From positions 2,285-56,109 of the forward strand of contig CAZDQC010000002.1 of NCBI GenBank assembly GCA_964507245.1: 53,825 bases of DNA, written 5' to 3'. This document shows, in pieces, positions 1-13,985 of this stretch. The DNA comes from an uncultured Rhodospirillaceae bacterium (GTDB taxonomy: Bacteria > Pseudomonadota > Alphaproteobacteria > GCA-2731375). The first letter of the stretch is position 1; every line of letters begins with the position of its first letter. The notes below the pieces were generated by a model. That model was given only the letters and a program-made list of their open reading frames with translations, was not told where the DNA came from and did not search any database. Both the position numbers and the translations under genes were made by a program.

Positions 1-2235
1 GGCGAACTGGCCTATCGCCAGCGGGGCGAGGATCATGCCTGGACGCCGGAAACCGTCGCCTTACTTCAACACGCTGTTCGTGCCGGCGACCATGCTAAAT
101 ACCAGGCCTATTCCCGGCGTATGAACGAGCAGGACAAGAAGTTGAAAAATCTACGTGGCCTGTTCGAGTTCAAGTTCGCTGAAGAACCCGTCCCCTTGGA
201 AGAAGTGGAAGCGGTTACGGAAATCTTCAAGCGCTTTGCCACGGGCGCGATGTCCTTCGGCTCCATCAGTTGGGAGGCGCATACCAATCTGGCGATCGCC
301 ATGAACCGTATTGGTGGCAAGTCGAACAGTGGTGAGGGTGGTGAGGAGGCCGAACGATATCGTATTTTAGAAAATGGCGATAGCATGCGTTCGGGCATCA
401 AACAGGTTGCCTCTGGCCGTTTTGGCGTGATGGCGGAATATCTGGTAAACGCCTCCGACATTCAGATCAAAATGGCTCAGGGGGCAAAGCCCGGTGAAGG
501 GGGGCAATTGCCAGGCCATAAGGTGGATGAATGGATTGCCCGAGTGCGTCATTCAACGCCTGGCGTAGGTTTGATTTCGCCGCCGCCTCACCATGACATA
601 TATTCCATTGAGGATCTGGCGCAACTAATTCATGACCTAAAGAACGTCAATCCGGCAGCACGAATTTCTGTCAAACTGGTCTCTGAACTGGGCGTGGGAA
701 CGGTCGCAGCCGGCGTTTCCAAGGCGCATGCGGATCATGTGACTATTTCCGGCTATGAAGGCGGTACGGGCGCTTCTCCCATTACGTCAATCCAAAGTGC
801 TGGCAGTCCTTGGGAAATCGGATTGGCCGAAACCCATCAGACGCTGGTCATGAACCGCCTGCGCGGCCGCATTGCGGTGCAGGTGGACGGCGGCTTGCGC
901 ACGGGTCGTGACGTGGTGATAGGTGCTATGTTGGGCGCCGACGAATTTGGCATCGCCACTGCGGCCTTGATTTCTCAAGGCTGTATCATGATGCGCAAAT
1001 GTCATCTGAACACGTGCCCTGTTGGTGTTGCGACCCAGGATCCGGAATTGCGCAAGCTGTTCCCGGGCACACCGGAGCATGTCATCAATTTCTTCACATA
1101 TGTAGCGGAGGAAATCCGGGAACTTATGGCTAAACTGGGTTATCGCAGGTTCGACGAGATGATTGGTCAGAGGGACCGCCTAGAAATTCGCACAGCGGTT
1201 GATCATTGGAAAGCCAAAGGCTTGGACTTGACCCCATTGCTTCATAAACCTGACGCCGGACCAGAGGTAGCCATCTACAACTGCGAGGATCAGGACCACG
1301 GTCTTGATAAGGCTCTGGACCATCAGCTAATCGAACTAGCAGAACCGTCTATTGAACGTTGCGATCCTGTCAAAATTGACCTGCCGATACAGAACACGAA
1401 CCGTACAGTGGGCGCCATGTTGTCGGGCCGGATTGCCCAGCGCTACGGCAAAGCAGGACTTGATGACGACACCGTTCATGCCAAATTTACCGGAAGCGCG
1501 GGGCAAAGCTTTGGCGCTTTTCTCTCGGCTGGAGTTACCTTCGAATTAGAAGGGGACGCGAACGATTACGTTGGTAAGGGGCTGTCCGGTGGCCGACTTG
1601 TAATTTATCCCCCCAAAGTCTCTGCCATCAAACCGGAGGAAAATATTATAATTGGTAATACCGTTCTTTATGGTGGCATTGATGGCGAATGTTATTTCCG
1701 TGGCGTAGCCGGTGAGCGGTTCGCTGTTCGGAATTCGGGTGTCACTGCAGTGGTCGAAGGCGTGGGCGATCATGGTTGCGAGTATATGACGGGTGGCGTC
1801 GTCGTTGTCCTGGGAAACACAGGCCGCAACTTTGCTGCCGGGATGAGTGGCGGAATTGCTTATGTGTTAGATGACAGCCACGATTTCCATTTGCGATGTA
1901 ACATGGCCATGGTGGAACTGGAACCCATCGCGGACGAGGACATGGTCATGGAGAACCAAGGCCATCAAGGCGGGGATCTGGAGACGCATGGTCGGGTCGA
2001 TCTGATACATGACATGACCCGTTATGACGCCCAGCGCCTGCGCGGTCTGATCGAGAACCACATGCGTTATACCGGCAGCGAACTGGCGCGCGAAATTTTG
2101 CACAATTGGGATGATCAATTGCCGCGTTTCGTCAAGGTGATGCCAGTGGATTACCGCCGTGCTTTACAGGAGATGCAGGCGAGGACACAGCCCGTGTCCC
2201 GATCCAACGAAATAGTGGCGGTCGCAGGTGAGTAA
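1..2235 (+). CDS. gltB: Glutamate synthase large subunit (5'-truncated by window edge)
   Basis: Frame is open from base 1 ([17 protein letters not shown]...). Motifs [28 protein letters not shown], [3Fe-4S] [16 protein letters not shown], and C-terminal GXGXG beta-helix repeats. Confidence 0.98.
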
Positions 2236-2240
2236 GCAGT

Positions 2241-3683
2241 ATGGGTAAACCAACAGGCTTCATAGAGATCGCCCGACGTGAACAGTCGTACGCGCCCGAA
2301 AAGGAACGTTTGAAGCACTATGATGAATTCACGGTCTCTCTGAGTGATCCAGAGGTCCGGCAGCAGGGTGCCCGTTGCATGGATTGCGGTATTCCTTACT
2401 GTCATGACGGTTGCCCAATAAACAATATTATTCCGGAATGGAATGATCTCGTCTATCAGGGTGAATGGCGCGAGGCCTTGCGTATCCTGCATTCGACTAA
2501 CAACTTTCCGGAATTCACCGGCCGCATCTGCCCCGCCCCTTGCGAGGCGGCCTGTACTCTGAACATTACCGACCAACCTGTGACTATCAAGACCATCGAG
2601 GTATCCATTGTTGAGAAAGGCTGGCAAGAGGGTTGGATTGTCCCCCGCATTGCCAAACGGCGCACGGGCAAGATCGTAGCGGTAGTGGGTTCAGGCCCCG
2701 CCGGAATGGCCTGTTCTCAGCAATTGGCCCGGGCAGGGCACAGCGTGGTGCTATACGAAAAGAACGCCCGCATCGGTGGTTTGATGCGTTATGGCATTCC
2801 AGATTTTAAGATGGAGAAGCACTTTATCGACCGGCGCATGGCGCAAATGCGTGCTGAGGGCGTAGAGTTTCGTCCCAACAGCCATATTGGCATCACCATT
2901 CCTATCGAGGAAATTCAGGAGAAATTCGACGCCGTGGTGTTGACTGGTGGCGCGGAACATCCCCGCGACATGCCCGTGCCGGGGCGGGAATTGCCTGGAG
3001 TGCACTTTGCTATGGAATTCCTGACCCAGCAGAACCGGCGCCTGAATAGCGAACCTCTGGGCGAAGGCCCTGAAATCATGGCCAGCGGAAAACATGTGGT
3101 AGTGATTGGCGGCGGCGACACGGGCTCGGATTGTGTGGGCACGTCCAACCGCCATGGCGCGGCCTCGGTCACCCAGTTGGAGATCCTGCCCAAGCCACCT
3201 GAAAGGGAGGACAAGGCTTTGACCTGGCCAGATTGGCCCCTAAAGCTGCGCACATCTTCCTCTCATGACGAAGGTTGCGAGCGGGATTGGTCCATCTTGA
3301 CCAAGAAAATTAATGAGAGGAATGGTAAGATTGAAGCCCTGGAACTGGTCCGTGTCACTTGGAGCCAGGATCAAAATGGCGTCATGACCATGAACGAGGT
3401 GCCTGGGAGCGCCTTCGAGCTAAAAGCAGACCTGGTTCTCCTCGCCATGGGCTTCGTGCACCCGGTAAAGACCGGCATGCTAGAGGACCTGGGCGTAGAG
3501 CTGGATAGGCGCGGAAACGTCAAGGCAGACACGGTCGACTACGCTACCTCAATCCCGGGCGTTTGGTCGGCCGGCGATATGCGCCGGGGCCAGTCCCTGG
3601 TGGTCTGGGCGATACGAGAAGGCCGTCAATGCGCCCGCGCAGTGGATCAAGCCCTGATGGGCAGCAGTATACTGCCGCGTTGA
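2241..3683 (+). CDS. gltD: Glutamate synthase small subunit
   Basis: MGKPTGF start, [10 protein letters not shown] and [12 protein letters not shown] Fe-S motifs, GSGPAG and GGGDTGSDC nucleotide-binding motifs; 5 nt after gltB. Confidence 0.98.
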
Positions 3684-8027: not shown

Positions 8028-8864
8028 CTAACCGTGCCAGGGCTGTAACAAAATCCATAACATTTCTACGGCGCGCAGCCAGTCATCCAGGGCCCGTTGG
8101 CGCGGCTCAAGGATAAGGGCATCGACGCCGGAGGTGGCATACCCATCCGCCATTTCCTTCAAAGCATTCGGGTCATCCTCCAACGGGTCCCAGAAAAGGC
8201 GCATTGAAACAACAAAATCCTTGCCGCGGGCCGCTCGAAGGTCCTCAATAATGGGGTTAATCTGATCCGTCGGCACGCGGGTGCCATGCCAACCGTCGCC
8301 CAGAGCTTTGGCTCGGCGCAAGGCCGGTTTGGAATTGCCGCCGACCCAGATGGGGATCTTGCGTTCCGGTTGCGGTAAGGCACGAATGCCATCCAGGGCT
8401 GCGGTCACAGTGGTAGGTTGATAGGAGATGGGGTCTTCGCCCCAGCAGGCCCGAAGGATGTTGATGATATCGTCAGTCCGGGCGCCCCGATCATGGAAGG
8501 GTACGCCCATGGCGTCGAATTCTGCTTCCATCCAGCCGACGCCGGTGCCCAGGATCAACCGTCCGTCGCTCAATAAATCTAGGGTCGCGAGCTCCTTAGC
8601 TAGGTGCGCTGGAATGCGTAAAGGCAATACCAAAACCGAAGTTCCTAGTTCCACTCGGCTTGTAGCCGCCGCCGCCCAGGTCAAAGTGATCAACGGCTCA
8701 TAAAAACTTTTCGAAGGCGGATAGGGGGCATCATGTGGAATCGCTAGATGATCATTAACCCAGATATTGTCATAGCCCAAATCCTCAGCCTGGCGGGCGC
8801 CGCGACGCACGGCTTCGGGCCCTGCCTTGCGACCGATTTGGGGAATGTGAATGCCCAATTTCAT
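8028..8864 (-). CDS. LLM-class (luciferase-like) oxidoreductase, Rv2161c-like, possibly F420-dependent
   Basis: AEDLGYDNIWVNDH, LGTSVLVLP, LAKELATLDLLSDGRL-LG-GVGW-EAEF, IPIWVGG, GDGW. Confidence 0.88.
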   Translation of the reverse strand: MKLGIHIPQIGRKAGPEAVRRGARQAEDLGYDNIWVNDHLAIPHDAPYPPSKSFYEPLITLTWAAAATSRVELGTSVLVLPLRIPAHLAKELATLDLLSDGRLILGTGVGWMEAEFDAMGVPFHDRGARTDDIINILRACWGEDPISYQPTTVTAALDGIRALPQPERKIPIWVGGNSKPALRRAKALGDGWHGTRVPTDQINPIIEDLRAARGKDFVVSMRLFWDPLEDDPNALKEMADGYATSGVDALILEPRQRALDDWLRAVEMLWILLQPWHG

Positions 8865-8932
8865 GATGCAATCCTTCTTGTGCTACGGGGGCGAGGCTGT
8901 TGTAATCTTCCGAGTATAGGAGAAATGGCGCT

Positions 8933-10582
8933 ATGGTCCGAGAGCTTATGAACCCTTGTGGCATTGTTGCGAGCGAGGATATGCCACTTGCATCACGCGG
9001 CATGCATGACGGCCCGACGATAATTGGTCTGTTCTCAAATCAAAAAGCCAATGCGGATTTGTTCCTGGATAATATCCAGGCTTTGTTGTCCGATCGATTT
9101 GATGATGTGGAATTCCTCCGCGGCCAGAAATCGGCCTCTGTGCCGGCGGAATTCTCTGACGAGTTTTTGAATCGCTGCCATATGGTGGCGGCCGCCTTTG
9201 GCGATTGAGGTTCATGCACGTCGTGGTGTATCCATGACAGCATCAAGTTAGAGAAGCTGGGCATACCCACCGCCACAGTCTGCAGTGATGAATTTTACAG
9301 CTTGGGCAAGGCGGAAGCTCAATGCCTCGGCGTACCCGGCCTACCCATTGCAGTGGTGCCCCACCCGGTCGCAAAATTATTGCCTGATGAAGTGGCCGGC
9401 CTTGCCCGTGGCGTGGTGGATGAAATTTATCGTCTGTGGCATGAGGACGCGGACCATCTGCGCGCCGAGTTCAAAGAAAAACAACCGTCCGCAAAACAAC
9501 AATTACGATACAAGTCATTGTTCGAAGGGAATTATACCGCCCCCAATGCACCTGAACGTATGAATGGCCCAGACGATTTGGACGGCGTTAATCGCCTGTT
9601 CTATAGCAGAGGGTGGACCGACGGCCTTCCCATAATCCCGCCCACGCCGGGACGATACGAAAAGATGCTGAGCGGGACGAATCTTGATGTAAATCAACTG
9701 TTATCCTTGATCGAGCCTCGTCAAGGCAAGGCTACAATTGGTAAGGTAGCGGTCAATGCAGTTATGTCGGGCTGTCTGCCGGAACATTTGCCGGTGTTGG
9801 TGGCCGCCGCCAACGCTCTGGGCAATTCGGATCTGAACCTCAAAGCTCTGAATACCACCACGCACCCTTGTACGGTTCTGGCTATAATCAGCGGCCCCAT
9901 TGTTGAAGAAATCGATATTAACAGTACCTACAACGCCCTTGGCCAGGGCAGCCTAGCTAATGCCACGATTGGTCGGGCAATTAGGTCAATCCTGTTGAAT
10001 ATCGGTGGGGGCACGCCCGGGATCCTGGATCGGGCCACTATGGGCTCTCCGTCCAAATTTAGCTTCTGCTTTGGTGAAAGGGCCGACGAAAGCCCATGGG
10101 GCGAAACTCTGGCCATGGAGCGCGGTTTTGCCCCGAATCAAAATACTGTCACCCTGTGTGGGGTTGAGGGGCCGCACAATGTGAACGACCATTACGGCAA
10201 GACGGCCGAGGAAATCTTGCTGACGGTCGGCGGCACCATGGCGCAACCAGGGCTGAATAACAGCTATCTGGGTGGTGAAATTATTGTGGTTCTGGGGCCG
10301 GAACATGCCGACATCATCGCCAAGGACGGCTTTTCTAAATCTGATGTCCGAAAATTCTTAATGGAACATGCTCGGATACCGGCCCATGCTCTGTCCGATC
10401 CACAACGCGATATTATGCGTCAATATGTACCACATCGCCTTTTGGACAACGGCAAGGGCGATGCCCTGATTGTCACTTCTCATGATGAAATTTTATTGAC
10501 GGTGGCTGGTGGCGCGGGTCGCCACTCGGCGATTATTCCCTCGTTCGGCAACACCAGGGCGGTGACTGAGATCATTGGATGA
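8933..10582 (+). CDS. UGSC-family selenoprotein (Sec at codon 92, TGA 9206-9208) fused to a C-terminal GWTDGLP domain of unknown function; 549 aa
   Basis: AGGAG RBS at 8918-8922. ORFs 8933..9208 and 9302..10582 are in frame (offset 369 nt). The gap translates without another stop: [43 protein letters not shown], a U-x-x-C motif. Confidence 0.9.
9209..9240 (+). promoter_or_regulatory. Candidate bacterial SECIS hairpin
   Basis: Directly after the TGA: TCATG(9212-16) pairs with CATGA(9233-37), and CAC or TGCAC pairs with GTG or GTGTA around a loop starting with G (GTCGTG). Folded by eye only. Confidence 0.5.
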
Positions 10583-10802
10583 GCCTTGCGGGCGCCTGGA
10601 TAGGTCTCCCTTGGATGACATGCCAATTACAATGGCCAGGCCAAAGAAAATCATGGCCACTGCCCATGTTGTTTCAGACATCAGAACTCTAGCGAACTGA
10701 AAATCTTTTGCAGTGTGCTGGATGCGAGCACAGGTTAATTCTGAGACAATCTCAAAAGCGCCAGAGAACTAAATTTTATAAATCGTCTCATGGGTCATAG
10801 GC

Positions 10803-12185
10803 CTATAAAGCCTTAACGATGTCGTCGATCATTTTCTTCGCGTCGGCGAACAGCATCATGGTGTTGTCGGCATAGAACAATTCGTTATCGATGCCGGCAT
10901 AGCCGGGCGACAGGCTACGCTTGACGAACAGGCAGGTTCGGGCTCGATCCACGTCCAGGATAGGCATGCCAGCGATAGGGGAGTTTGGCTCGTGAGCCGC
11001 CGGGTTAGTAACGTCGTTAGCCCCGATGACGAAGGCCACGTCGGCATTAGCAAAATCGGAGTTAATCTCCTCTAATTCGAACACTTCATCATACGAGACA
11101 TTCGCCTCGGCCAATAGCACATTCATATGGCCGGGCATGCGTCCAGCCACGGGATGGATAGCGTAAGTCACCTTGACCCCATGCTCTTTGAGCAAATCGC
11201 CCATGTCACGCACGGAATGCTGGGCCTGTGCCACAGCCAGACCGTAGCCGGGCACGATAATGACGGACGAGGCATTCTTCATAATATAGGCAGCATCGTC
11301 CGCGCTGCCTGCCTTTACAGGCTTGTCACTTTGGGTTCCAGTGGCGATAGCGTCACCGCCAAATCCGCCAAGCAGAACTGAGATGAAGGAGCGGTTCATG
11401 GCCTTGCACATGATATAGGATAGAATCGCACCGGACGAACCCACTAGGGCACCAGTGATAATCAGGGCGATGTTTTCCAACGTGAAACCGATGCCGGCTG
11501 CTGCCCAGCCCGAATAACTGTTAAGCATCGAAACGATCACCGGCATATCCGCTCCGCCGATGGGAATGATTAGCAAAAGGCCGAGCGCAAAGGCCAGGAT
11601 GGTCATAGCCCAAAACCATCCAGCCGCCGGCTCAATTGTGAATAGAACAACTAGAATGAGGATTGCCACACCCATGGCAGCGTTGAGGGCATGCTGGCCT
11701 GGAAAGACGATGGGATTGCCTGTGACAACACCTTGCAACTTGCCAAAGGCGATGATGGAGCCGGAAAAGGTAATAGCGCCGATCACCACGCCAATCCCCA
11801 TTTCGATTCGGCTAGCCAGCTTTAGCAACCCGTCGTCGCCGGCGATGTCGTAGGCACCCGGGTTGTAAAATGCCGCCGCTGCCACCAGAACGGCGGCTAA
11901 ACCCACTAGACTATGGAAGGCGGCGACTAGCTGCGGCATGTCGGTCATGGCAATGCGCCGGGCGATAATGGCTCCGATAGCACCGCCTGCGACCATCGCG
12001 CCCAAAATCCATTCGTAGGAGACAACGTCTGGATTGATCACCGTTGCAACCACGGCGATTGCCATGCCGATCATGCCGTAAATATTGCCGCTGCGGGCAT
12101 TTTCGGGCGATGACAAGCCGCGCAGGGCCATAATGAACAGGACCGAAGCGATCAGATATGCCAGGGCCGTCAAATTTGCCGACAT
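10803..12185 (-). CDS. pntB: NAD(P) transhydrogenase subunit beta
   Basis: MTDMPQLVAAFHSLVG, IGGADMPV, NSYSGWA, VPGYG, HPVAGRMPGHMNVLLAEA, GANDVTNPAA. Confidence 0.98.
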   Translation of the reverse strand: MSANLTALAYLIASVLFIMALRGLSSPENARSGNIYGMIGMAIAVVATVINPDVVSYEWILGAMVAGGAIGAIIARRIAMTDMPQLVAAFHSLVGLAAVLVAAAAFYNPGAYDIAGDDGLLKLASRIEMGIGVVIGAITFSGSIIAFGKLQGVVTGNPIVFPGQHALNAAMGVAILILVVLFTIEPAAGWFWAMTILAFALGLLLIIPIGGADMPVIVSMLNSYSGWAAAGIGFTLENIALIITGALVGSSGAILSYIMCKAMNRSFISVLLGGFGGDAIATGTQSDKPVKAGSADDAAYIMKNASSVIIVPGYGLAVAQAQHSVRDMGDLLKEHGVKVTYAIHPVAGRMPGHMNVLLAEANVSYDEVFELEEINSDFANADVAFVIGANDVTNPAAHEPNSPIAGMPILDVDRARTCLFVKRSLSPGYAGIDNELFYADNTMMLFADAKKMIDDIVKAL

Positions 12186-12197
12186 GACCGGGCGCCC

Positions 12198-12497
12198 CTA
12201 TTGCTTTTTCTTGTACATGGCCAGCATTCGCTGGGTAACAAGAAAGCCGCCAAATATATTCACGGCGGCCAATCCAATGGCGATCACTCCCAAAATCTTG
12301 GACAAAGTCATGTCCGGCGGTCCAGCTGCGATTACGGCGCCGACGATGATAACTGAGGAAATCGCATTAGTTACACTCATCAATGGTGTATGAAGGGCTG
12401 CTGTGACTGACCAGACCACGTAATACCCCACAAATATTGCCAGAAAGAAGATCGCTAGGCGGTAAATGAATGGATCAATGTCATTGGCCACATCCAT
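12198..12497 (-). CDS. pntAb: NAD(P) transhydrogenase subunit alpha part 2 (membrane)
   Basis: ALHTPLMSVTNAISS and NIFGGFLVTQRML motifs. Confidence 0.96.
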   Translation of the reverse strand: MDVANDIDPFIYRLAIFFLAIFVGYYVVWSVTAALHTPLMSVTNAISSVIIVGAVIAAGPPDMTLSKILGVIAIGLAAVNIFGGFLVTQRMLAMYKKKQ

Positions 12498-12503
12498 GGA
12501 CGT

Positions 12504-13658
12504 TTATTCCTTCGTACACAACAAGGGATGAATAACAGCGCCACCCTTGGTCAGGCAGACGCCCGAAACCGTCTCATCTTCGAAATTGAAGGAAATGCCA
12601 CCATTTTCGCTATCAATATGTGGCGAAAGAAAATTGAACAGATTGCGGGCATACAGTTCCGAGGCGTCGGCCGCGACCCGGGCCGGAAAATTAGCATGAC
12701 CAATAATCTTAATTCCTTTCACATCCTTAACCGTTCCCATTTCTGACAAGGCGCAATTGCCGCCATTCTCCACTGCCAGGTCGACGATAACAGAGCCCGG
12801 TTTCATCGACGCTACCATGGTTTCATCTACCAAGACCGGTGCTGCTTGGCCGGGGATCAGCGCCGTGCAGATGACAATATCCTGTTTGGAGATGGTTTCC
12901 GAGATTAGAGCTGCCTGTTTCTTCTGATATTCCCCGCTCATTTGCTTGGCATAGCCAGTTTCAGTTTCGGCCTGGGTGCTTTCCTCGTCATCGACCATTA
13001 TAAATTTGGCGCCCAGGCTTTCCACTTGCTCTTTTGTAGCAGGACGCACATCGGTGGCGGAGACCACGGCCCCTAATCGTCGGGCCGTGGCAATAGCCTG
13101 CAGGCCTGCGACCCCAGCGCCCATGACAAAGACCTTGGCCGGCGTAATGGTGCCCGCTGCCGTCATCATCATCGGCAGGGCACGGCCGAATTCTTCGGTC
13201 GCATCCAGCACAGATTTGTAGCCGGCTAAATTAGCTTGGCTGGATAACACGTCCATACTTTGCGCCCGGGTGATACGAGGCATCAATTCCATGGCAAAGG
13301 CATCGATGCCCGCTTCCGCATAGACTTCACAGTCAGCACGCCGGATAAGAGGGTTCAACATGGCGATCAGCACCTGCCCTGATTTCATAAATGCTAGCTC
13401 ATTATCCCTATCCGCCTCATCCAAAATCGGACGACGTACCTTCAGGATCACATCCGCGCCGTCGAGCGTGCCGGCTGCATCCGAGGCGATCGTAGCACCG
13501 GCCTGCTGATAATCCGCGTTGGAAATATAGGCGCCTGCTCCGGCATCAGCCTCGACCGCCACTTCAGCACCAAGTCCCACGAACTTCTTCACAGTTTCTG
13601 GCGTTGCCGCCACCCGCCGCTCACCGGTTCGCCGTTCTTTTAATACGGCAATTTTCAT
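12504..13658 (-). CDS. pntAa: NAD(P) transhydrogenase subunit alpha part 1 (dI)
   Basis: Starts MKIAVLKE..ERRVAATPETV; contains PRITRAQSMDVLSSQ, GAGVAGLQA, TALIPG. Confidence 0.97.
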   Translation of the reverse strand: MKIAVLKERRTGERRVAATPETVKKFVGLGAEVAVEADAGAGAYISNADYQQAGATIASDAAGTLDGADVILKVRRPILDEADRDNELAFMKSGQVLIAMLNPLIRRADCEVYAEAGIDAFAMELMPRITRAQSMDVLSSQANLAGYKSVLDATEEFGRALPMMMTAAGTITPAKVFVMGAGVAGLQAIATARRLGAVVSATDVRPATKEQVESLGAKFIMVDDEESTQAETETGYAKQMSGEYQKKQAALISETISKQDIVICTALIPGQAAPVLVDETMVASMKPGSVIVDLAVENGGNCALSEMGTVKDVKGIKIIGHANFPARVAADASELYARNLFNFLSPHIDSENGGISFNFEDETVSGVCLTKGGAVIHPLLCTKE

Positions 13659-13705
13659 ATATTTAACCCTGAAAGGGAGTCTAGAACGTTCAGAAGAATC
13701 CGCGG

Positions 13706-13733
13706 AATATAGCAAGTCGAGCGCATCAAGCAA
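13706..13733 (-). promoter_or_regulatory. Possible sigma70-type promoter of the pnt operon
   Basis: Minus strand TTGCTT-N16-TATATT, about 50 nt upstream of the pntAa ATG. Confidence 0.3.
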
Positions 13734-13985
13734 CGTATCGATTTTCTCTAACAATATTAATTTGTACGGATAATAAATTTTCCGCGCGGATCTGGAGAAA
13801 AAGTAGGATGCATAATTGGCCCCAATTTGGGGCACAGCGATGCTTCGATTTGATCACGCTATGCAAGGACCAGCATCATGGATACAAACAAAATTAGCGA
13901 CACTTTCTCAATATACTGCTTCATGTCTATGTATTTGGTTCTCTAGTGCGCTGAATATTGTTTGATTATACGAAGGAGCATCCTC

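Follow-up and report, generated by a model that had tools for sequence, protein, structure and literature searches.

A Predicted UGSC Selenoprotein Joined to a Conserved Partner Domain in an Uncultured Marine Alphaproteobacterium

The Locus

The gene described here lies on the forward strand of a 53,825-nt stretch of DNA (the window) from an uncultured Rhodospirillaceae bacterium (contig CAZDQC010000002.1, positions 2,285 to 56,109). It codes for a member of the UGSC selenoprotein family joined to a second domain, here called X. In bacteria generally, UGSC and X nearly always come together, either fused in one or the other order or encoded by adjacent genes on the same strand. One frame of 549 codons extends from ATG 8933 to TGA 10582, and its sole internal stop is TGA 9206-9208, as read from the sequence and the list of open reading frames (ORFs). 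This stop ends an ORF of 91 amino acids (8933..9208); a second ORF of 426 amino acids (9302..10582) follows in the same frame, and the 93 nt between them (9209-9301) hold 31 sense codons that start with GGT TCA TGC ACG. An AGGAG ribosome-binding site precedes ATG 8933, and no AGGAG-like sequence is found upstream of TTG 9302. The initial annotation of this DNA had described the two ORFs, the single intervening TGA and the ribosome-binding site in the same way, and the description is accurate. The two ORFs are a single gene, 8933-10582.

Readthrough of the TGA gives a protein of 549 residues with selenocysteine (Sec, U) at position 92 and D-U-G-S-C at residues 91-95. The 32-residue readthrough segment is identical to that quoted in the initial annotation, and a ten-residue stretch of the protein contains U92. 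The N-terminus MVRELMNPCG is common to the orthologs in the alignment. The features of the locus are collected in Table 1.

Table 1. Coordinates of features at the UGSC-X locus, numbered from the first letter of the window.
Feature	Position	Strand	Basis
AGGAG ribosome-binding site	8918..8922	+	10-nt spacer to ATG 8933, direct sequence reading
Predicted UGSC-X selenoprotein gene, 549 aa	8933..10582, including terminal TGA 10580-10582	+	frame, ortholog N-terminus, AlphaFold2 model
UGSC domain, residues 5-170, alpha/beta, carries U-G-S-C	8945..9442	+	PF24696, NF041046
In-frame TGA, predicted to be read as Sec92	9206..9208	+	position; TGA in 73/73 copies; Cys at this place in P0022
Cys95 (TGC), putative resolving cysteine of the U-x-x-C motif	9215..9217	+	codon read; family alignment
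SECIS-like hairpin GUCGUGG-UGUAU-CCAUGAC	9220..9238	+	fold, synonymous-site conservation, covariation
Domain X, residues 195-549	9515..10579	+	C281 (9773-9775), R348, D366 and C379 (10067-10069) conserved family-wide; no Pfam match
Luciferase-like monooxygenase gene, divergent neighbour (functional link not shown)	8028..8864	-	Pfam Bac_luciferase, E 1.8e-54

The UGSC Domain and Its Predicted Selenocysteine Codon

The gene is an ordinary UGSC member; neither the family nor this type of fusion is new. One uninterrupted alignment joins residues 5-170 to positions 2-171 of the 172-position Pfam UGSC model (PF24696; E 8.2e-43), with 146.9 bits where the cut-off is 25. The NCBIfam equivalog model NF041046, "UGSC family (seleno)protein" (UGSC_fam), requires 125 bits and reaches 140.2. 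Because both models match straight across the TGA, the UGSC domain spans it. Residues from about 195 to 549 have no match in the Pfam or NCBIfam libraries. The family alignment shows no variation at C92 and G93 and hardly any at S94 and C95.

A search with the readthrough protein returned 1248 proteins at E <= 1e-3 among 8000 candidates scored. The best 120 matches include 118 proteins of 397-473 amino acids that cover only 71-81% of the query and therefore begin past the TGA. One of the other two has 311 amino acids, and P0022 (554 amino acids) covers 99%. Opposite the ten residues around U92 P0022 reads LAD-C-GSCTSWC, whereas the other nine sequences of that alignment begin after the TGA. 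Truncated calls of Sec forms thus fill the databases. Standard gene callers do split this gene, as the initial annotation had expected, and with so many truncated entries the UGSC family must be considered systematically mis-called. Among 18 full-length database relatives, 12 have C-G-S/N-C (CGSC or CGNC) at the site. Homologs do align over the junction with Cys or Sec at position 92.

A scan of contigs from one genome per species found 74 loci in metagenome-assembled genomes (MAGs) of alpha-, gamma-, beta- and "delta"-proteobacteria, with identities of 39-95%. Two of these loci end before the Sec region. TGA occupies the same codon in all 72 that cover it, which together with the window makes 73 of 73 copies, and the protein is conserved on both sides. 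Loci L068 and L089 have extra stops and were left out of the protein alignments. In L089 (L089:1900-3407, from a Burkholderiales MAG) the TGA of D-U-G-S-C is kept and there are nine in-frame stops; it may represent a frameshift, a pseudogene or a tblastn offset. The match at L078:6001-7811 is about 170 nt longer than all others, with the Sec codon about 170 nt further in, and may have an N-terminal insertion.

Other samples give a similar picture. UGSC was detected in 44 of 401 genomes of an alphaproteobacterial class sample, where 87 of the 93 UGSC matches contain one TGA. The 81 UGSC matches at metagenomic X loci comprise 76 with TGA, four with Cys and one partial match. It had also been considered that sequencing reads might have TGC or TGT at this codon. 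Contigs from independent runs (three DNA studies and one 247-nt RNA-library contig) bridge it, and no change at 9206-9208 is seen among the differences listed, in a table that leaves out 21 weaker differences; the RNA-library contigs are no proof of transcription.

The Downstream Hairpin

In a bacterial selenoprotein gene a selenocysteine insertion sequence (SECIS) hairpin follows the in-frame UGA at a suitable distance. In the E. coli fdhF literature a UGA-hairpin spacing of 11 nt and G-U in the apical loop are SelB determinants. In the window gene a hairpin with a 7-bp stem and the 5-nt loop UGUAU begins 11 nt after the UGA. The z-score of the 76-nt fold is a modest -1.91, so that fold energy alone is weak evidence. 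The seven codons of the hairpin (+4 to +10) have a synonymous-codon entropy of 0-0.32 bits in 73 orthologous sequences; for adjoining residues that are just as conserved, D-1, G+1, S+2, L+14 and E+15 the values are 0.98, 1.10, 1.56, 1.97 and 0.98 bits. Covariation was examined in 76 distinct UGSC genes (from the window, the genome loci and the metagenome loci). With the helix taken as eight pairs, 92.4% of cells pair, a share that falls to 19-50% once the 3' arm is shifted. Both sides have changed in five of the eight pairs, in 20 cells where 3.2 are expected, and none of 500 shuffles reaches the observed values; the helix was derived from the same 76 sequences, which are related to one another. 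Conservation is at least 90% at G23 and T24 (U24) of the loop. Each of the six complete UGSC paralogs of the genome has a TGA followed by a hairpin, and the hairpin sequences differ. An Rfam scan of 8700-10800 detected no SECIS family and gave four chance matches, all far below the gathering scores.

Selenocysteine Machinery of the Genome

The genome to which the window belongs (3.78 Mb in 277 contigs, 93.9% complete) has selA, selB, selC and selD, the four genes that the initial annotation proposed to look for, all above curated or gathering cut-offs. The selA (583.7 bits) and selB (442.2 bits) genes are adjacent. The tRNA-Sec reaches 68.2 bits, where the gathering score is 47, and ARAGORN assigns it the anticodon TCA. 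The selD gene (382.6 bits; G000:C86:11713-12639, L001) has one in-frame TGA, so SelD is itself a selenoprotein here. At least four PrdB-like genes (Pfam GRDB) are also present, on contigs C36, C200, C53 and C194, each with one in-frame TGA and a T/N-U-P-V-C motif; two of these places are loci L094 and L197. The PrdB-like genes, the Sec-containing SelD and the six UGSC genes together mark a selenoprotein-rich marine alphaproteobacterium. With models that cross the TGA, a codon conserved in every copy and the sel genes in place, the proposal of one 549-residue protein with Sec92 holds up well. UGA 9206-9208 is very probably recoded to Sec by SelB and tRNA-Sec by way of the hairpin at 9220-9238, and the predicted product would consist of UGSC, a short flexible linker and X, of about 350 residues.

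Pairing of UGSC with Domain X

Seven UGSC matches occur in the genome, six of them with TGA and one a fragment at a contig edge. All eight X domains of the genome adjoin or are fused to the six complete UGSC loci. The arrangements vary. X is fused to UGSC on C2 (the window), C149 and C178, and on C178 a second X follows. On C91 a UGSC gene is followed by two X genes, and on C5 and C250 X precedes UGSC. A diverse set of metagenomic X loci (38-61% identity) gave the same result: at 77 of 80 a UGSC is encoded no more than 600 bp away in the same orientation, and two of the three exceptions are cut by a contig edge. In the other direction, X is adjacent and on the same strand at 28 of 29 UGSC loci of other alphaproteobacterial genomes.

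Domain X

X belongs to a large family: among representatives of clusters at 50% identity, 4984 match at E <= 1e-3, of which 1095 reach E <= 1e-30. In database proteins it occurs alone (about 350 amino acids), as UGSC-X, X-UGSC and X-X, and once as X-Pyr_redox_2 (pyridine-nucleotide-disulfide oxidoreductase). Entries with the order X-UGSC stop exactly at profile position 92 and are therefore truncated at Sec. The polar residues conserved in the X family include D230, T268, N275, C281, T310, N343, R348 (invariant), D366, C379 and E382. H311, C313, H420, H458 and H531 are additional His and Cys residues conserved only in the clade of the window gene. X can also be duplicated. A tandem X-X protein (P0220) has 717 amino acids, and two consecutive X genes stand behind a single UGSC on C91 and C178, which hints at the formation of hetero-oligomers of X.

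The AlphaFold2 model of X has a mean predicted local distance difference test (pLDDT) score of 95.3 and a predicted template modelling (pTM) score of 0.93. No convincing fold relative of X was detected in the Protein Data Bank (PDB) by Foldseek (best E 5.8e-4 at TM 0.22) or by VIA-align against 48,161 chains (best Z 5.4, none >= 8), and the named folds in the resulting lists are at noise level. A profile search of PDB sequences gave nothing better than E 0.17. A Pfam scan of 94 members of the X alignment found no family except UGSC in more than two members, and in the ESM Atlas only unnamed or automatically named clusters were matched.

The full-length model (pLDDT 92.0, pTM 0.91) has a low-confidence linker at residues 192-195, and the pTM of this single-chain model is the basis for the relative placement of the two domains. 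The N-terminal domain is modelled as a beta-alpha-beta, doubly wound alpha/beta structure in which Sec92 follows strand 84-90 and directly precedes helix 93-108. Its Foldseek matches, among those listed, are generic flavodoxin-like, Ras-like and GT-B proteins, and no thioredoxin-fold protein is among them.

Genomic Neighbourhood

Upstream of the window gene are the divergent luciferase-like monooxygenase gene and genes for an amidohydrolase, a CobW GTPase and a DHDPS-like aldolase. The NAD(P) transhydrogenase genes pntB and pntA (10803-13835) follow downstream and are encoded on the opposite strand. Genes for the large and small subunits of glutamate synthase are found at the start of the window (1-3683); there is no evidence of a link of these, or of pntB/pntA, to UGSC-X. 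In 23 of 73 sources a luciferase-like gene is found no more than 500 bp away. It is upstream and divergent in the clade of the window gene, and a second clade has it downstream in convergent orientation. An apparent occurrence of this gene in 66 sources was rejected as a single-linkage artefact of antisense ORFs; the count of 23 comes from stricter clustering and BLAST. The CobW-type GTPase is located 2.6 kb upstream in 14 near-clade sources.

Elsewhere the genes next to UGSC-X are mostly catabolic. Neighbours include TctC, NMT1 and phosphonate-type binding proteins, a TRAP component, amidohydrolases, a dimethylformamidase-like protein, short-chain dehydrogenases, enoyl-CoA hydratase, CoA-transferase, a sulfatase and a TPP enzyme. 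On C178 a gene for a 300-residue thioredoxin-reductase-like protein with a CAFC motif (L107:553-1455, - strand) and an EthD-domain gene (L107:1-531) are found directly behind UGSC-X and X, and this cluster looks like a complete electron-donor operon. Thioredoxin-reductase-like genes with CxxC occur at 5 of the 80 metagenome loci, in three cases directly upstream and on the same strand.

Possible Function

The glycine and proline reductases provide an analogy for how such a pair could work. In those systems a selenoprotein (GrdB or PrdB) works with a separate substrate-binding partner, and the chemistry of its U-x-x-C motif involves a Se-S bond. By this analogy UGSC-X may be a two-module Sec-dependent reductase in which X binds the substrate and UGSC supplies the selenol, a proposal that we put at a little below even odds. 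X would bind a small-molecule substrate through the conserved Cys281, Cys379, Arg348 and Asp366. The UGSC module would give a selenol as nucleophile or reductant, the redox pair Sec92 and Cys95 acting at the active site of X. A Se-S bond between Sec92 and Cys95 could then form, as in the U-x-x-C selenoproteins GrdB and PrdB, and could be reduced again by a thioredoxin-reductase-like flavoprotein or by the general thioredoxin/thiol system.

Profile comparison is consistent with a relation of this kind. A PrdB-like selenoprotein of the genome has the same local pattern around its T-U-P-V-C motif. When a profile of 117 UGSC sequences was compared by hhalign with one of 30 alphaproteobacterial PrdB-like proteins (16 with Sec, 14 with Cys), 67 columns were aligned, Sec on Sec, with a probability of 73.3% (E 3e-5, score 40.9). 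Controls scored much lower: at most 22.0 for 20 column-shuffled templates, 13.2 for the reversed template and 14.7 for the X domain. The Sec-bearing core of UGSC is thus probably a distant relative of GrdB/PrdB, which does not establish membership in that family. The thioredoxin-reductase-like gene of the C178 cluster, its counterparts at metagenome loci and the largely catabolic neighbours also speak for a reductase.

Several observations weigh against a reductase of this type. The similarity to GrdB/PrdB is moderate (73%) and confined to those 67 columns, and with a single PrdB-like sequence in place of the profile the alignment, still Sec on Sec, is weak (E 0.009, probability 4.5%). The Pfam GRDB model (PF07355) has no match in the window protein at E <= 0.1. 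In the PrdB-like protein at L094:1180-2334 (+ strand) the GRDB match runs to the last of the 347 profile positions and stops one residue short of Sec; because it stops there, the model may not see the shared core, and this suggests that it was built from UGA-truncated sequences and lacks the conserved region past Sec. X is not related to the PrdB-like proteins by hhalign (score 16.9) and has no Pfam family of any kind. A pyruvoyl-type partner (PrdA/GrdE) is absent among the annotated neighbours, for which no dedicated search was made. No third gene is conserved across clades in the 73 ortholog sources and the metagenome loci. Thioredoxin-reductase-like neighbours are rare (5/80), and none occurs beside the 73 orthologs of the window gene. 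Lastly, 6 of the 18 full-length fused relatives have lost the CGSC motif, one probably through misalignment, so X can exist beside a redox-dead UGSC domain.

It is also conceivable, though rather unlikely, that UGSC is a generic thioredoxin-like thiol/selenol-disulfide oxidoreductase with the antioxidant or protein-disulfide role proposed in 2008, and that X is its dedicated client or regulator. The U-x-x-C motif does sit at the N-terminus of a helix, and the two family-wide conserved cysteines of X could form a disulfide. A thioredoxin-like fold and redox-active Cys in fused domains are proposed in the UGSC passage of PMC2398784, and 'Thiol-disulfide oxidoreductase family protein' is the name automatically given to one cluster of the ESM Atlas. 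Against this, the N-terminal domain is predicted to be beta-alpha-beta, and its listed Foldseek matches include no thioredoxin fold. Six UGSC and eight X paralogs in one genome are more easily reconciled with substrate-specific enzymes than with one housekeeping redox pair, and the catabolic gene neighbourhoods point the same way.

It is improbable that X handles a metal, an Fe-S cluster or sulfur/selenium, with UGSC as a delivery or chaperone module that provides no catalytic reductant. Such a role would make use of the clade-conserved His and Cys residues of X, and weak Foldseek and VIA-align rows do include Fe-S hydro-lyases (class I fumarate hydratase, L-serine dehydratase, CyuA); the CobW-type GTPase of the near-clade sources would also fit. 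But the structural matches do not rise above noise (TM about 0.2, Z <= 5.4), a standard cubane site needs more than the two family-wide cysteines, the other His and Cys residues are confined to the clade, and CobW is not adjacent and is limited to near relatives. Least probable of all is that the TGA is a true stop (a 91-residue fragment with a downstream restart), a nonsense mutation in a pseudogene, or a UGA read as Cys or Trp without selenium: gene callers do annotate split genes, but TGA is kept in every copy down to 39% identity with conserved protein on either side, the hairpin is conserved and covaries, the full Sec machinery is present, a stop would cut the Pfam domain in mid-fold, and TGA is not generally a sense codon here because the same gene terminates with TGA 10580.

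Overall, a recoded UGSC-X selenoprotein that belongs to a near-obligate pair and may act as a two-module Sec-dependent reductase is the best explanation, with a probability of roughly 70%. To call the gene a hidden selenoprotein is a correct annotation fix and no discovery, since family models and a fusion report from 2008 already exist. The useful lead is the pairing: UGSC is almost never found without X, and X has neither a Pfam family nor a clear structural relative. For this reason the functional unit to study is UGSC with X, possibly together with a thioredoxin-reductase-like donor, and a long-standing functional question becomes directly testable when the two are treated as a unit. A broader proposal is more doubtful. 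UGSC and X might constitute a widespread, so far unrecognised two-component selenoenzyme in which X, with about 5000 clusters and no solved fold relative, is catalytic and UGSC is a miniature Sec module related to GrdB/PrdB. If that were true, Stickland-type Sec-dependent reductive chemistry would reach aerobic marine and soil bacteria, and the 'stand-alone' UGSC selenoproteins of ocean surveys would be small subunits of that enzyme.

Comparison with Known Systems

UGSC proteins have been known for some time. The relevant passage of PMC2398784 (Zhang & Gladyshev 2008) counts "UGSC-containing" proteins among the major selenoprotein families of the sea (255 sequences with Sec, 21 with Cys), suggests a thioredoxin-like fold with a redox role for conserved Cys in fused domains, and reports a "UGSC/Unknown_1" fusion (Figure S1A there). 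UGSC is given as a selenoprotein of unknown function in the corresponding part of PMC1976440, where the cultivable Hyphomonas neptunium is named as a carrier. In one survey it makes up 8.2% of marine selenoprotein genes and is among the most abundant in ocean metagenomes (PMC9402790, passage on UGSC). It is still listed without a function in the passages on UGSC of PMC9312934 and of a 2026 review (PMC13188914), in agreement with the initial annotation, which had called UGSC a recognised and functionally uncharacterised family. The UGSC accounts of these five papers, in the passages that deal with the family, mention neither an obligate partner nor a link to GrdB/PrdB. The near-obligate pairing of UGSC with X thus goes beyond the fusion statement in that part of PMC2398784.

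The window gene does not differ in kind from the UGSC family as defined by PF24696 and NF041046: it scores past both cut-offs, has U-G-S-C and would encode Sec by TGA. It also resembles the 'UGSC/Unknown_1' fusion as outlined in PMC2398784, which is likewise of marine alphaproteobacterial source and has a conserved Cys-bearing fused domain; Unknown_1 may be the same domain as X. Thioredoxin-fold oxidoreductases with U-x-x-C or C-x-x-C share with UGSC the spacing of the motif and its position at the N-terminus of a helix. In contrast to them, the predicted topology of UGSC is Rossmann- or flavodoxin-like.

The GrdB/PrdB proteins (PF07355), which include the selenoproteins of glycine, betaine, sarcosine and D-proline reductases and the marine PrdB-like proteins, are similar to UGSC in that U-x-x-C follows a beta-strand at the start of a helix, and an L-E-x-x-G-I-P-T strand and a G-V-P ... 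(H/F)-P-L segment align between the two. They have a long region before Sec that UGSC lacks. The host of UGSC-X is an aerobic marine alphaproteobacterium and no Stickland fermenter.

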